DNA from: Nitrosopumilaceae archaeon
GTDB lineage: Archaea > Thermoproteota > Nitrososphaeria > Nitrososphaerales > Nitrosopumilaceae
Length of the DNA: 64,000 nucleotides
Reading direction: 5' to 3'
NCBI GenBank assembly: GCA_965200155.1
Contig: CBDATR010000010.1
Span: 128,001-192,000 of the forward strand
Below are positions 1 through 21,156 of the stretch, piece by piece; the stretch's first letter is position 1; each line of letters starts with the position of its first letter. A model generated the notes under the pieces. The model ran no database searches, was not told the DNA's origin, and saw only the letters and a program-made list of their open reading frames with translations. Position numbers and translations under genes: made by a program.

Positions 1-102
1 GAATCGTTCTATAGCCAATCTCAGTAATAGTACCCTGTCACCGCCGATGGCATCCGCGCCTGGCTTGGCGCCGAATCGTTTCATTACCAGTCTCAGTAAT
101 AG
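1..102. repeat. Repeat-insert-repeat: diverged 36-bp duplication around a 36-bp unique insert (31-66)
   Basis: GAATCGTT...TCTCAGTAATAG at 1-30 and 73-102 (period 72); the sister IS has one copy and no insert at 48212-48247. Confidence 0.7.
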
Positions 103-623
103 GGCGGCGTTCTCTGAGGTTGCATGCTCAAAGTGCCGCTCCGACTATACACCTGGATGCATCATCTATGAGATTCAGTCCCTTGAAGCGCTCATCTTTC
201 ATGGTATGCCAGTGCCACATTGCATTGGAATATTTACGCCCATAGCGTACCCACTCTGACTTTGCAGGTGATGAGCCTGCCGTACCGTTCTTTTTCATTA
301 TGCGATATACTGCGCGATATGTATTATGTCTCAGTCTCTTTGCAATACGTACTACTCCGGCGGGATCCTTGCTGTATGCTTCAGTTACCATTAGTATCTG
401 GGTGGCGGTGATTGGTATCATGAGCCTGCCCATCTTTACTCAAGTCGTTCCCGTGCTCTGGTTCACAATCTTCGTACGTGTCTTGTTTCAGGTCTTGAGC
501 TATTTTGGTTGTGGCAACGCCTCTTTTGTCTTGATTCCTCTGTTATTCTCTTTACCATATGGCTTGTGCAATCTGAACTACTGTACGCCGGATCCTAAGC
601 GGACTTACTTTTCGTACTATTGA
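1..623 (-). mobile_element. Decayed IS481/IS1202-like insertion sequence (rve integrase pseudogene), cut by window start
   Basis: Near-identical to 48212-48786; minus-strand fragments WVRYGRKYSNAMWH and LIDDASRCIVG resemble an rve core; same terminus ...CGTACTATTGA. Confidence 0.75.
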
Positions 624-677
624 CCTAAATTCACACACTGCAAATTCTGTCTTTGATTTTTCTTCAGCCAGAAAAAT

Positions 678-769
678 GTATGAGTTCACGTCTTCCGGAA
701 TCTTGTGCACAAATCACATTAACTGTCGCGATCAGTTGTGCGTAAATTTAGACACAGGTGAACTCATAC
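678..769 (+). mobile_element. 92-bp IS66-type MITE
   Basis: GTATGAGTTCAC...GTGAACTCATAC termini; TSD AGAAAAAT. Confidence 0.95.
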
Positions 770-846
770 AGAAAAATTGCATCCGTCCTACATATTATGT
801 GGATTTTACAACCATTATCTAAATAGGTGGAAACTCTACCACGACC

Positions 847-2616
847 ATGCAATACAGTATGGGGCGCGCGGCCGATATGTGCGGTGCCGCACTGGGCTTG
901 GTGCCTGCGGATACAGTCATTCGCGACTGCTCACTGGTATCTGTATATACGGGGGAGGTAATACCGGACACCGACATATCCGTGTACAGTGATCGTATAG
1001 CATATGTGGGACCGGATGCCGCGCATACCATAGGCCCTGATACAAAAGTGCTTGATGCCCGGGGCAAATATGCGACACCGGGACTTGCGGATCCACACAC
1101 TCACCTTGATCAGTTTATGACGCCATCTCCAACAGCTCGGGTGGTCCTGTTACACGGTACCACCAGCATGTTTTCGGATCCTATAGATATCACAGGCGTA
1201 GGTGGTTATCCCGGATTCCGATGGTTTCTACAGGCCTGCCATGATGCTCCGGTGCGTATATTCAACGGTATACCAGGTGGTATTCCAGTGGATCCGGATT
1301 TCAGCCATATCTCTGGCTTGGATGATAACCAGATTCAGGAAGCGCTTACAGATGATAATGTCTTTGGAATGGGCGAGGTCTTTGCGTGGACCAAGGTTAC
1401 TAACATGGATGCCACCACACTGCATGCCATAGACAGTACACGGGGAGCCGCATTGGTAGTTAATGGGCATACTGCGGGCATGGGCGGAAAAAAGCTTGCC
1501 GCATATGTTGCGTCGGGTATACGGTCGTGTCATGAGCCCATAGACTTTGATCAGGTCATAGAAAGGCTGAGGCTGGGAATGTACGTTATGGTGAGAGAGG
1601 GCTCCATACGACGGGATCTCCGGAATATAATGACAGAGGTTATGTCCAAAAAGGTGTATGCTGGCAGACTTATGTTCTGCTCTGATGGTCTCAACCCCTT
1701 GGACATGCAGGCGGGTCACATGAATCACTGCATACGCGAGGCCATCGATGTAGGAATAGATCCAGTGGAGGCCGTATCCATGGCATCTATGAACGTCTTT
1801 TCCTACTACAACATGGATGCCGAATTGGGAGGCATCGCCCCGGGGAGACTGGCAGATATACTGCTACTAGATGATCTGGACTCATTCCACATAGACTCGG
1901 TTCTGGTGGGTGGCCGGACTTTGGTGCGTGGAGGCAAAGTACTGGGTAACCCACATACAGATAAGATTCCACCATGGTTACTGAATACGGTAAGCTTGAA
2001 CAAAATTACTGCCGCAGACTTTGAGATAGTTCTTGATCAAGCCATCGACGGCCCTACAAAAGTCAATACAATAAACATGCGTACTGAGATTATAACAAGG
2101 CCGGGTATGGCAGAGACCCGTATACAGAATAATAGGGTGGAGGCGCCACTTGGCGCCTGGATGGTCGGGGCCTTTGATCGACTAAATAAAACTGGTAACC
2201 GGTCCTTGGGGTTCTTGGAGGGACTTGGAGAGGGAAATGGTGCGGTGGCAACTACTGCAACCTTTCATGAAAATGACATGGTGGTAATGGGGACTAATAG
2301 TCACGATATGGCTGTCGCGGCAAACCGTGTCATAGATGCGCGCGGTGGTGTGGCCGTGGTGCAATCCGGCAATGTAATTGCAACTCTTCCCATGCCCGTG
2401 GCCGGATTAATGTCCACAGAAGACGCAGATACGGTACGGGGGAAGTTTGAGGTCCTCATCAGCGCGATACACCACATTGGATGTGGATTCGACAATCCAC
2501 TCCAGATACCTCTATTCCTACCATTCCTGGCACTACCCAGTATCAGAATAACAAACCGCGGTATGATAGACGTAAAGAAAAAGTGCATCGTGCCGGTTAT
2601 GGACATTCCTGCATGA
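847..2616 (+). CDS. ade: Adenine deaminase (amidohydrolase family)
   Basis: 589 aa; DPHTH, GMGEV, NGHTAG, SCHE, REGS, CSDG motifs and the adenine-deaminase C-terminal domain. Confidence 0.9.
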   Translation: MQYSMGRAADMCGAALGLVPADTVIRDCSLVSVYTGEVIPDTDISVYSDRIAYVGPDAAHTIGPDTKVLDARGKYATPGLADPHTHLDQFMTPSPTARVVLLHGTTSMFSDPIDITGVGGYPGFRWFLQACHDAPVRIFNGIPGGIPVDPDFSHISGLDDNQIQEALTDDNVFGMGEVFAWTKVTNMDATTLHAIDSTRGAALVVNGHTAGMGGKKLAAYVASGIRSCHEPIDFDQVIERLRLGMYVMVREGSIRRDLRNIMTEVMSKKVYAGRLMFCSDGLNPLDMQAGHMNHCIREAIDVGIDPVEAVSMASMNVFSYYNMDAELGGIAPGRLADILLLDDLDSFHIDSVLVGGRTLVRGGKVLGNPHTDKIPPWLLNTVSLNKITAADFEIVLDQAIDGPTKVNTINMRTEIITRPGMAETRIQNNRVEAPLGAWMVGAFDRLNKTGNRSLGFLEGLGEGNGAVATTATFHENDMVVMGTNSHDMAVAANRVIDARGGVAVVQSGNVIATLPMPVAGLMSTEDADTVRGKFEVLISAIHHIGCGFDNPLQIPLFLPFLALPSIRITNRGMIDVKKKCIVPVMDIPA

Positions 2617-2655
2617 AATCCCAATGCGAATCAAAATAAAAATGTCTAACTTTCT

Positions 2656-19484: not shown

Positions 19485-19485
19485 C

Positions 19486-19830
19486 ATGAGAGAGAGCCAC
19501 ATAATGAAGATACACTACGGCACGGCCATTGCCGCGGTGGGCTTGGTGGCTGTTCACGTACTTATGCGATTGGCAGACGGCTACGAACAATCGCTGGAGT
19601 ACGCTCATGTGGTGGCCAACTACCAATTCATTCCCTATGCGGGATTGCTGGAGATAATCCTGATACTTCTCTCGATTCATGGTTTCAACGGACTGCGTGT
19701 GATATTGCTGGAATTAAAGCAGGGTCGCACTTATGAAAAGGCAGTGTCCTATGGCTGCCTTGCTGGCATGATAGGTTTAATTGCATACGGATCTCGTACC
19801 ATCATAATGGTAAGCACGGGGATGGTCTGA
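19486..19830 (+). CDS. sdhD: Succinate dehydrogenase membrane anchor
   Basis: HGFNGLRVILLE, operon position. Confidence 0.82.
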   Translation: MRESHIMKIHYGTAIAAVGLVAVHVLMRLADGYEQSLEYAHVVANYQFIPYAGLLEIILILLSIHGFNGLRVILLELKQGRTYEKAVSYGCLAGMIGLIAYGSRTIIMVSTGMV

Positions 19831-20520
19831 GTGGACCAGACCGTGACACTGCGCGTGAAGCGCTCAGACAAGAACGAGTTTGACGAGTTCACCATTCCGG
19901 TACAAAAATGGACTACTGTCCTGGAGTGTATCCTGTATGCAAAACAGAGCATGGATCACTCCATTGCGGTTCGATATTCGTGCAGGCAGGCTACCTGTGG
20001 CAGCTGTGGCATGCGCATAAATGGCAAGCCTGCATTGGCGTGCTTTACCAAGGTCTCGGAGCTTAACTCAGATACAATAACGGTGGAGCCCATGAGCAAC
20101 TTTCCCATTATACGGGATCTGGCTGTAAAGTTTGAGAGACTCTTTGAGAATCATCGCCGTGTACAGCCATATCTGGAGAGTAACTTGCCGGATACGGGCA
20201 GGGAGCATTTACAAAACCCGGAAGAGCTTGAGAAATTCATACAGTTTGCGAATTGTATAAAATGCGGACTGTGCAACTCTGCCTGCCCTACTATGGCTAC
20301 CGACACTGAGTTTATTGGCCCGCAGGCATTGGCCCAAGCATACAGGTACGTGGCCGATAGCAGGGATAGTAGCAAGGACAAGCGGTTGCGCATAATTGAT
20401 GACTCTCATGGAATATGGCGCTGTCATTTTGCGGGATCCTGTAGCCAGGTCTGTCCCAAGGGTGTGGATCCCGCCATGGGGATACAGTTGTTACGGGGAT
20501 ACATGCTGGGATTCCGTTAG
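19831..20520 (+). CDS. sdhB: Succinate dehydrogenase Fe-S subunit
   Basis: SCRQATCGSC, CIKCGLCNSACP, CHFAGSCSQVCP. Confidence 0.95.
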   Translation: MDQTVTLRVKRSDKNEFDEFTIPVQKWTTVLECILYAKQSMDHSIAVRYSCRQATCGSCGMRINGKPALACFTKVSELNSDTITVEPMSNFPIIRDLAVKFERLFENHRRVQPYLESNLPDTGREHLQNPEELEKFIQFANCIKCGLCNSACPTMATDTEFIGPQALAQAYRYVADSRDSSKDKRLRIIDDSHGIWRCHFAGSCSQVCPKGVDPAMGIQLLRGYMLGFR

Positions 20521-20597
20521 TTACTGATAGTATTAATTCAGGTCTTTCCCAATCACGCACTTGATGTGATATGTCGTGCAAATGAAAACTAGTACGA

Positions 20598-20915
20598 TTA
20601 GGCTTTTGGCTTTGGGCTACTGTTTACCTGGTTGTTTATCTGCTCTGCCATAAAGTGGTTGGAGACGTTAACTGTTACATCATCAATCCCGTCCACTTTT
20701 AGCAGATTGTCGTGTATGTCCTGACATATCTTGAACCCGAATACGGCGGGGCAGAAAGGACTGGTAAGATGTAAGTCAACCCTGACCTTGGCATCTTCTA
20801 TGTCTACCTCGTCTATAAGTTCCAGTTCGGTAATTGATGTGTCTATTTCGGGATCCTTTATCTTTGAGAGCTCATCAAATATGTTGACTCTGAGCTTCTT
20901 GATATCCTGAGACAT
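20598..20915 (-). CDS. Fe-S cluster assembly protein (DUF59/SufT family)
   Basis: DPEI, ELELI, LTSPFCP motifs. Confidence 0.85.
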   Translation of the reverse strand: MSQDIKKLRVNIFDELSKIKDPEIDTSITELELIDEVDIEDAKVRVDLHLTSPFCPAVFGFKICQDIHDNLLKVDGIDDVTVNVSNHFMAEQINNQVNSSPKPKA

Positions 20916-21047
20916 ACTGTGTATGATGATGACTGCATTATATAATTATGTCATGCGACACTCAGTCGCGGTTTTAACCCGTTTACAGTACCAATAATCG
21001 CGGTTCCTGCAACTATATGATTTGCTCTGATACGGGCTTGGTGTAAT

Positions 21048-21156
21048 ATTTCTGCATAGTTATGATTTTAATGGGATGCTGACTAGGGCCATACATGCAG
21101 GATCCAACCACAGGTGATAATTTCTGCATAGTTATGATTTTAATGGGATGCTGACT
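21048..21156. repeat. Repeat-insert-repeat: perfect 37-bp duplication around a 35-bp unique insert
   Basis: ATTTCTGCATAGTTATGATTTTAATGGGATGCTGACT at 21048-21084 and 21120-21156. Confidence 0.92.

Follow-up and report, generated by a model that had tools for sequence, protein, structure and literature searches.

Dispersed through the genome of a sponge-dwelling Nitrosopumilaceae archaeon are about 50 short units in which a genomic segment of 36–37 bp is directly duplicated around an unrelated, spacer-sized insert, and we propose that these are very probably ectopic (off-array) spacer integrations made by the organism's own type I-G Cas4/1-Cas2, a reading drawn from sequence comparison. The CRISPR array that this complex serves lies elsewhere in the genome, and the units, found in genes, mobile elements and intergenic DNA, are apparently a large natural case of the known 'neo-CRISPR' process. 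Three of them lie in the stretch from which the analysis started, 64,000 nucleotides of contig CBDATR010000010.1 (assembly GCA_965200155.1), referred to here as the window. The genome, G000, is a 51-contig draft of 2.38 Mb; its contigs are numbered C1, C2 and so on, and the window is C10:128001-192000. Because the genome encodes archaeal AmoA and the public runs that hold the window are labelled as sponge metagenomes or have coded organism names, the organism is an ammonia-oxidising archaeon living in sponges. Long microsatellites, homopolymer runs and tandem repeats of 41 nt occur in several small contigs of 35-41% G+C (C2, C4, C6, C26 and others), which seem to be contaminants of the bin, from the host (eukaryotic) or elsewhere, and not part of the archaeon.

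An earlier note, made from the sequence of the window, described three spacer-like units there. Sites 2 and 3 are exactly as it described them, with duplications of 36 and 37 nt, respectively (Table 1). Site 1 is real but is cut by the edge of the window: the full unit is C10:127995-128102, with 36-mers at 127995-128030 and 128067-128102 (window −5..30 and 67-102). The note's 36-mer, 36-nt insert and period of 72 therefore stand, but the two copies match at 31 of 36 positions and the first begins 6 bp before the window, within which only the similarity of 1-30 to 73-102 is visible (83% identity at period 72). None of the three sites is listed by Tandem Repeats Finder, because each is a 1.5-copy unit with a unique middle.

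The contexts also agree with those given by the note, site 1 lying in a repeat element, site 2 in a gene and site 3 in intergenic DNA before a tetratricopeptide repeat (TPR) gene. The 73-bp unit at site 2 splits and frameshifts a gene for a restriction-endonuclease-like protein with an Mrr_cat domain, so that there are two coding copies of the peptide VTPCMISPPFS; after ...GVTPCMISPPFS the upstream fragment runs on for six out-of-frame codons, and the restart of the downstream fragment precedes ...VTPCMISPPFSWAAF. Site 3 lies between a minus-strand Fe-S assembly gene (end 20915) and the plus-strand TPR gene (start 21167). Its target starts with ATTTCTGCA, and the CRISPR repeat of this organism starts with ATTTCCGCA. 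The inserts of sites 2 and 3 have no exact match in the genome, in metagenome contigs or in viral contigs.

Local direct repeats were collected from the 18 contigs longer than 20 kb (2.16 Mb), with the CRISPR array excluded, as exact repeats of 33-40 nt separated by a gap of at least 10 nt. Forty-nine of these have periods of 71-75, whereas all 93 remaining period bins from 43 to 140 together hold 16, and among the 49 the commonest repeat lengths are 36 (n = 17) and 37 (n = 20). The earlier note had predicted both a genome-wide peak near 36+36 bp and dozens of events per genome; the peak is sharp, comprising a 36-37-bp duplication with a 35-38-bp insert, and the number found is about 50. The 49 units have distinct inserts and 43 distinct targets; 24 are in single-copy DNA and the others in repeats, to which at least 17% of 20-mers belong. 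A fuller catalogue, which includes units with diverged copies and from which 15 rows were struck manually as low-complexity, tandem or small-contig, contains 72 pairs, 46 of them having an exact core of 36-40 nt; the target and reading-frame analyses given below use those whose exact core is 33-40 nt long.

The lengths of these units are those of the resident CRISPR array, as the earlier note would have it if a Cas1-type integrase were at work. That note recognised no cas gene in the window, and indeed the only Cas1 match in the whole genome is on contig C9, where it forms the C-terminal part of a 549-aa Cas4-Cas1 fusion (Pfam E = 3e-91), so that the Cas1-like integrase asked of this lineage is present, with Cas2, beside an array. 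The array, which follows cas2, has 289 repeats of 36 bp, of which 287 are identical and two at the far end are degenerate. Its spacers are 35 (16), 36 (85), 37 (101), 38 (63) or 39 (15) nt long, giving periods of 71 (16), 72 (82), 73 (101), 74 (63) and 75 (15); the off-array duplications and inserts match this 36-nt repeat and these 35-39-nt spacers, and both sets have periods of 71-75. Beyond the array, on the opposite strand, are genes for Cas3 with a C-terminal HD domain and for GSU0054-family and GSU0053-family proteins (Pfam). We take this set—a Cas4-Cas1 fusion, Cas3 with a C-terminal HD, Csb1 (GSU0053) and Csb2 (GSU0054)—to be type I-G (formerly I-U). No large subunit (Cas8u/Csx17) is recognisable by Pfam, and a 319-aa open reading frame (ORF) beside cas3 has no Pfam match.

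The integration reading of the earlier note is supported, but its suggestion that the integrase has relaxed specificity is conjectural: Cas4-Cas1 seems to be an intact protein, and the regularity of the array is perfect. The Cas4-Cas1 ORF aligns over its full length with those of three of four congeners (the ORF of the fourth, G001, as called lacks ~50 N-terminal residues), and it differs from all four at 41 columns that are invariant among them; no obvious loss of a catalytic or cluster residue was seen by eye among those 41 columns. The adaptation operon itself carries two units (C9:70400-70587, periods 74 and 74), placed exactly between the cas4-cas1 stop and the cas2 start. Both the cas1 TAG and the cas2 start fall inside the duplicated 37-40-mer; the two ORFs are intact and 148 bp apart, and the inserts were copied from C10 and C24. 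In the congener G005 the cas1 stop and cas2 start are adjacent, forming a compact junction; the expansion in G000 may be a cause or only another consequence. On the minus strand of C43, at ~128.2 kb, an orphan leader-like stretch is followed by a single CRISPR repeat with three differing positions, which looks like an 'empty' second CRISPR locus.

The source of many inserts can be identified. There are 58 units whose exact core is 28 nt or longer, and 24 of their inserts are matched exactly at other places in the genome; three of these matches are merely to sister copies of an insertion sequence (IS), leaving 21 of 55 inserts that perfectly reproduce 33-42 nt of some other genome locus, in most cases a single-copy one. 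The array is quite different, with only one of its 288 spacers matching the genome outside the array (Fisher p = 9e-18 against 21/55), and this spacer pairs not with a native locus but with the insert of an off-array unit. The two, array spacer 58 and the insert of unit C25:4760, overlap by 28 nt, so both were taken from one element, although the comparison reveals no 5' flank for either. The self-matching inserts are mostly 35-39 nt long, and where the protospacer fixes the boundaries of the insert the duplications come to 36-37 nt. Contig C10, with 23% of the genome, contributes 13 of the 21 self protospacers (binomial p = 1e-4) and may be a hot region for acquisition, for example near a replication feature. 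The 30-nt cores of array spacers 1 and 4 (2 of 288) gave no matches in viral contigs.

The inserts differ from one another, with neither terminal repeats nor common sequence among them, and the matches that do occur among inserts are confined to copies inherited within IS families. In this they are unlike a transposon or miniature inverted-repeat transposable element with target-site duplication.

Unfilled forms of the targets exist for two of the window sites. The repeat element that hosts site 1 is present at 85 sites, and at 80 of these there is a single 36-mer without insert; the five filled copies have an identical 36-bp duplication and five different inserts (36, 36, 37, 42 and 36 nt). 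Five different inserts in five filled copies mean recurrent, independent integration, and this position is a hot spot for it. For site 2 the empty state is an intact paralogue of 444 aa on C43, with one 36-mer and no insert (75-80% DNA identity), which aligns with the split gene as two BLAST pieces overlapping by 36 nt. These paralogous and sister copies were used because congeners are too diverged in DNA for a search of relatives to be informative: with window 12600-13600 against 30 relatives, only short weak matches in two genomes were obtained. A further 37-mer in the window is empty in the copy of its element given in Table 1, whereas another copy of that element, at C25:4760, is filled with a 35-nt insert; a contig from run X5 has the filled form of a C25:4760-type element, with the 37-mer duplicated around a 35-nt insert.

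The earlier note saw the units as mutagens that might seed new arrays. The split gene at site 2 agrees with the former; the seeding of working arrays is conjectural, although at least four loci have two or more consecutive units. A second hot spot is an IS66-type element with 66 loci, of which 50 have a single copy of the target and 16 have 2-4 copies. Some of the spacers in this element are common to several copies and were presumably carried along by transposition; others are unique. At C24:352098-352298 two units are staggered by ~21 nt, the second duplication beginning inside the second copy of the first; this locus was hit twice in different registers.

Support for the junctions in reads, which the earlier note had called for, comes from k=31 contigs built from the reads of four public runs and compared with window 12500-21500. 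The run X1 contigs include one of 97 nt that spans 13064-13160 at site 2 (depth 79, against 65 in the flanks) and one of 95 nt that spans 21055-21149 at site 3 (depth 38.7, against 65-69). Run X5 belongs to another study; there the contigs on either side stop and resume at 13087/13137 and 21077/21127, the same coordinates as in X1. This is the pattern expected from a true copy–insert–copy structure. No contig that joins across with the unit skipped was seen in any run, X8 and X9 having no coverage of sites 2 and 3. A possible reading of the 0.58 depth ratio of site 3 in X1 is that some of the population is without the insert, but k=31 contigs are blind to the empty form of a 37-nt repeat.

Target preference was examined at both ends of the 15 distinct targets with a duplication of exactly 36 nt (30 half-sites). 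G is found at +1 in 16/30 (T in 1/30), at +4 in 15/30 and at +11 in 17/30, G is absent from +5 (0/30), C is found at +12 in 13/30, and a purine at −3 in 25/30; single-position binomial p values are 1e-4 to 1.4e-3, except that for C at +12 (p = 0.013). The resulting motif is G+1, T+2/+3, G+4, not-G+5, G+11, C+12, derived from these 30 half-sites only. Five targets match 8 of the first 12 bases of the CRISPR repeat, a count that has no formal control.

The lengths of the units fit a reading-frame filter. Periods divisible by 3 account for 25/49 off-array units and 97/285 array periods (p = 0.025): off-array as against in the array, 72 nt is at 41% vs 29% and 75 nt at 10% vs 5%, whereas 73 nt is at 29% vs 35% and 74 nt at 14% vs 22%. 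A selective filter for reading frame explains why 72 and 75 are enriched off-array and 73 and 74 depleted, and in-frame units in long ORFs do keep the ORF open (for example C10:40507, C22:16729 and C43:106025).

A congener with a complete genome, G005, encodes a similar Cas4-Cas1 (58.7% identity); the repeat of its array is 36 nt long, and the array periods are 71-75. In a scan that covered 1,188,200 of its 2,214,775 bases, one off-array unit was found, at C1:586035-586147, with an exact 36-nt duplication and a period of 74; this count sets aside seven period-75 pairs with related sequences at 490657-491759, which belong to a tandem coding repeat. The density of units is thus ~0.8 per Mb in G005 and ~23 per Mb in G000.

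Ectopic integration by the resident type I-G complex, the explanation that we favour, would proceed as follows. Cas4/1-Cas2, the probable catalyst, would capture a 35-39-bp fragment and make two staggered strand transfers 36-37 bp apart, the spacing that it uses on the 36-bp CRISPR repeat, at a site only weakly like the repeat ends; gap repair would then duplicate the 36-37 bp between the cuts, giving target–insert–target. Self spacers in the array, where they would be lethal, would have been removed by autoimmunity, and off-array copies, presumably never turned into guide RNAs, would survive. Retention of so many events may reflect weak purifying selection in a repeat-rich sponge symbiont. 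A stronger proposal is that the adaptation module is a standing genome-wide writer of mostly self DNA into weakly repeat-like 36-mers, repeatedly hitting sites in transposable elements, with units spread by transposition and its own cas1-cas2 junction expanded; this we regard as doubtful.

Several observations weigh against integration by Cas4/1-Cas2. The shared protospacer adjacent motif (PAM) that the earlier note hoped for was not seen: inspection by eye of the flanks of 20 self protospacers gave no consistent motif, and just 6 of the 20 agree with TTN, which we take to be the Geobacter type I-G PAM. The half-site motif is weak, sharing no more than T+3, C+5 and G+11 with the CRISPR repeat ends. 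Period 72 is over-represented off-array (20/49, against 82/285 in the array), no empty-site comparator was found for site 3, and the read support consists of k=31 contigs, not of raw or long reads, with one of the runs possibly being the source of the assembly.

The period of 72, the commonest off-array, together with the lack of an evident PAM, would also suit a separate, non-CRISPR process that adds ~72 nt by combining a short copy of genomic DNA with a compensating target duplication, and the inserts do fold slightly better than random 36-mers (−6.05 vs −4.80 kcal/mol, p = 0.004). Such a process is improbable, since the duplication keeps to 36-37 nt although periods vary between 71 and 75, as they do in the array, and since it is the two in-frame classes that are enriched and the two out-of-frame ones that are depleted, which fits a frame filter and not a fixed total. 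The inserts, moreover, are unrelated to each other and form no single hairpin family, and no other candidate enzyme was found, though the search was for Cas1 only.

In a 51-contig draft that includes low-GC microsatellite contigs, exact repeats of 36-37 nt are near common k-mer sizes and might arise from misresolved loops in the assembly graph or from chimeric reads; an artefact of assembly or sequencing is nevertheless very improbable, as the contigs of run X1 carry both junctions of each unit and breaks at identical places are found in those of the second study, the unit sizes are the ones of the resident CRISPR array, a like scan of the complete congener gives one unit in 1.19 Mb, and coding units are biased to in-frame lengths, whereas an artefact would not respect reading frames. 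Ordinary tandem duplication or replication slippage with a diverged middle could be read into site 1, whose copies differ at 5/36 positions, and native coding repeats into the IS66-type element, in which the first 'spacer' (30 or 36 nt) is common to most multi-copy loci and may be native. As a general account this is exceedingly unlikely: the inserts are dissimilar to the duplicated segments and, contrary to the diverged tandem halves that the earlier note allowed for, 21 have exact full-length sources at distant loci; the 46 of 72 pairs with an exact core of 36-40 nt leave no time for a middle to diverge; and the paralogue and the 80 sister copies, which have neither insert nor second copy, contradict it for sites 1 and 2.

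Table 1. Units, protospacers and related features of the window (window coordinates).
Feature	Position	Strand	Remarks
Site 1, first 36-mer copy	1..30	.	last 30 nt only; start 6 nt before window; 31/36 vs second copy
Site 1, insert, 36 nt	31..66	.	unique; no match elsewhere in genome
Site 1, second 36-mer copy	67..102	.	GGCGCCGAATCG...AGTAATAG
Protospacer, exact 37-nt source of the insert in unit C1:11039	1970..2006	-	
Protospacer, exact 35-nt source of the insert in unit C24:207551	4853..4887	+	
Mrr_cat restriction-endonuclease-like gene	12169..13459	-	interrupted, with a frameshift, by the 73-bp unit; fragments: ORFs 13459..13112 and 13131..12169
Site 2, first copy	13058..13093	.	exact 36-nt duplication
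Site 2, insert, 37 nt	13094..13130	.	period 73
Site 2, second copy	13131..13166	.	exact 36-nt duplication
Empty copy of 37-mer	13889..13925	.	filled with a 35-nt insert in another copy of that element, C25:4760
Site 3, first copy	21048..21084	.	exact 37-nt duplication; start ATTTCTGCA
Site 3, insert, 35 nt	21085..21119	.	period 72
Site 3, second copy of 37-mer	21120..21156	.	end 10 nt before ATG of TPR gene
Source of the insert of unit C10:288031	28132..28172	-	best of 15 matching sources (multi-copy element)

Three other features of the window were noted. The region at 13704-14606 has a summed contig depth of ~62,000 in sponge runs, against ~65 in its flanks, with a core at about 14031-14124; many loose contig ends at 14031 and 14124 indicate a short, very high-copy repeat, these being summed depths and not copy number. 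An exact 8-nt repeat in seven copies (AGTCCACC) at 9531-9587 and an exact 64-nt tandem duplication of 2.7 copies at 10617-10787 are not related to the 72-nt units.

The nearest precedent is the off-target spacer integration giving rise to 'neo-CRISPR' loci that Nivala, Shipman and Church (Nat Microbiol 2018) reportedly obtained with over-produced Cas1-Cas2 of the E. coli type I-E system. The resemblance lies in spacer-sized off-array inserts, duplication of one repeat-length of target, and repeated hits at some sites that give mini-arrays. Unlike that over-production system, the events described here are native, at full depth in environmental samples, and number about 50 in one archaeal genome; they also involve a type I-G Cas4-Cas1 fusion, duplications of 36-37 bp, and inserts of which ~40% are self-derived. 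The type I-G system (formerly I-U) of Geobacter sulfurreducens is said by Almendros et al. (2019) to have a Cas4-Cas1 fusion. With that system G000 shares the Cas4-Cas1 fusion, Cas2, Cas3 with a C-terminal HD domain, GSU0053 and GSU0054, but here an archaeon is the host, the genes for adaptation lie on one side of the array and those of the effector on the other, the two sets converging, and no Cas8u is recognisable by Pfam.

The non-canonical integration of Nivala et al. is cited elsewhere (bioRxiv 10.1101/148544, PMC7054753, PMC6698737), reportedly with circumstantial evidence only in two other species, and according to these papers off-target integration has been seen mainly with over-expressed E. 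coli Cas1-Cas2 and in vitro. Pyrococcus furiosus Cas1-Cas2 integrates in vitro at non-CRISPR sites that share repeat features (PMC6698737); its off-target sites resemble ours in having partial features of the repeat or leader–repeat junction and in a cut spacing that follows repeat length, and differ in that those products come from a plasmid assay whereas ours are chromosomal and retained in nature. In Streptococcus thermophilus, ectopic acquisition of spacers occurs within arrays (PMC5338259, PMC7999890); this is likewise integration away from the leader-proximal repeat, but into genuine repeats inside the array, whereas the targets here are unrelated genomic 36-mers. In our literature search no natural genome carrying events of this kind by the dozen came up.

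With about 50 sites, the genome is a natural catalogue in which the target rules of a type I-G integrase can be read. Comparison of what is acquired (~40% self) with what survives in the array (0.3% self) bears on self-acquisition and the cost of autoimmunity, and the split genes and in-frame additions of 24-25 codons are evidence that Cas1-Cas2 can be a real mutagen. Mini-arrays inside transposable elements bear on the origin of arrays. Should the adaptation module prove to be a genome-wide writer, the genome would offer a first unfiltered view of native Cas4/1-Cas2 acquisition before autoimmunity removes self spacers, and a natural view of new CRISPR arrays being born and spread on mobile elements.

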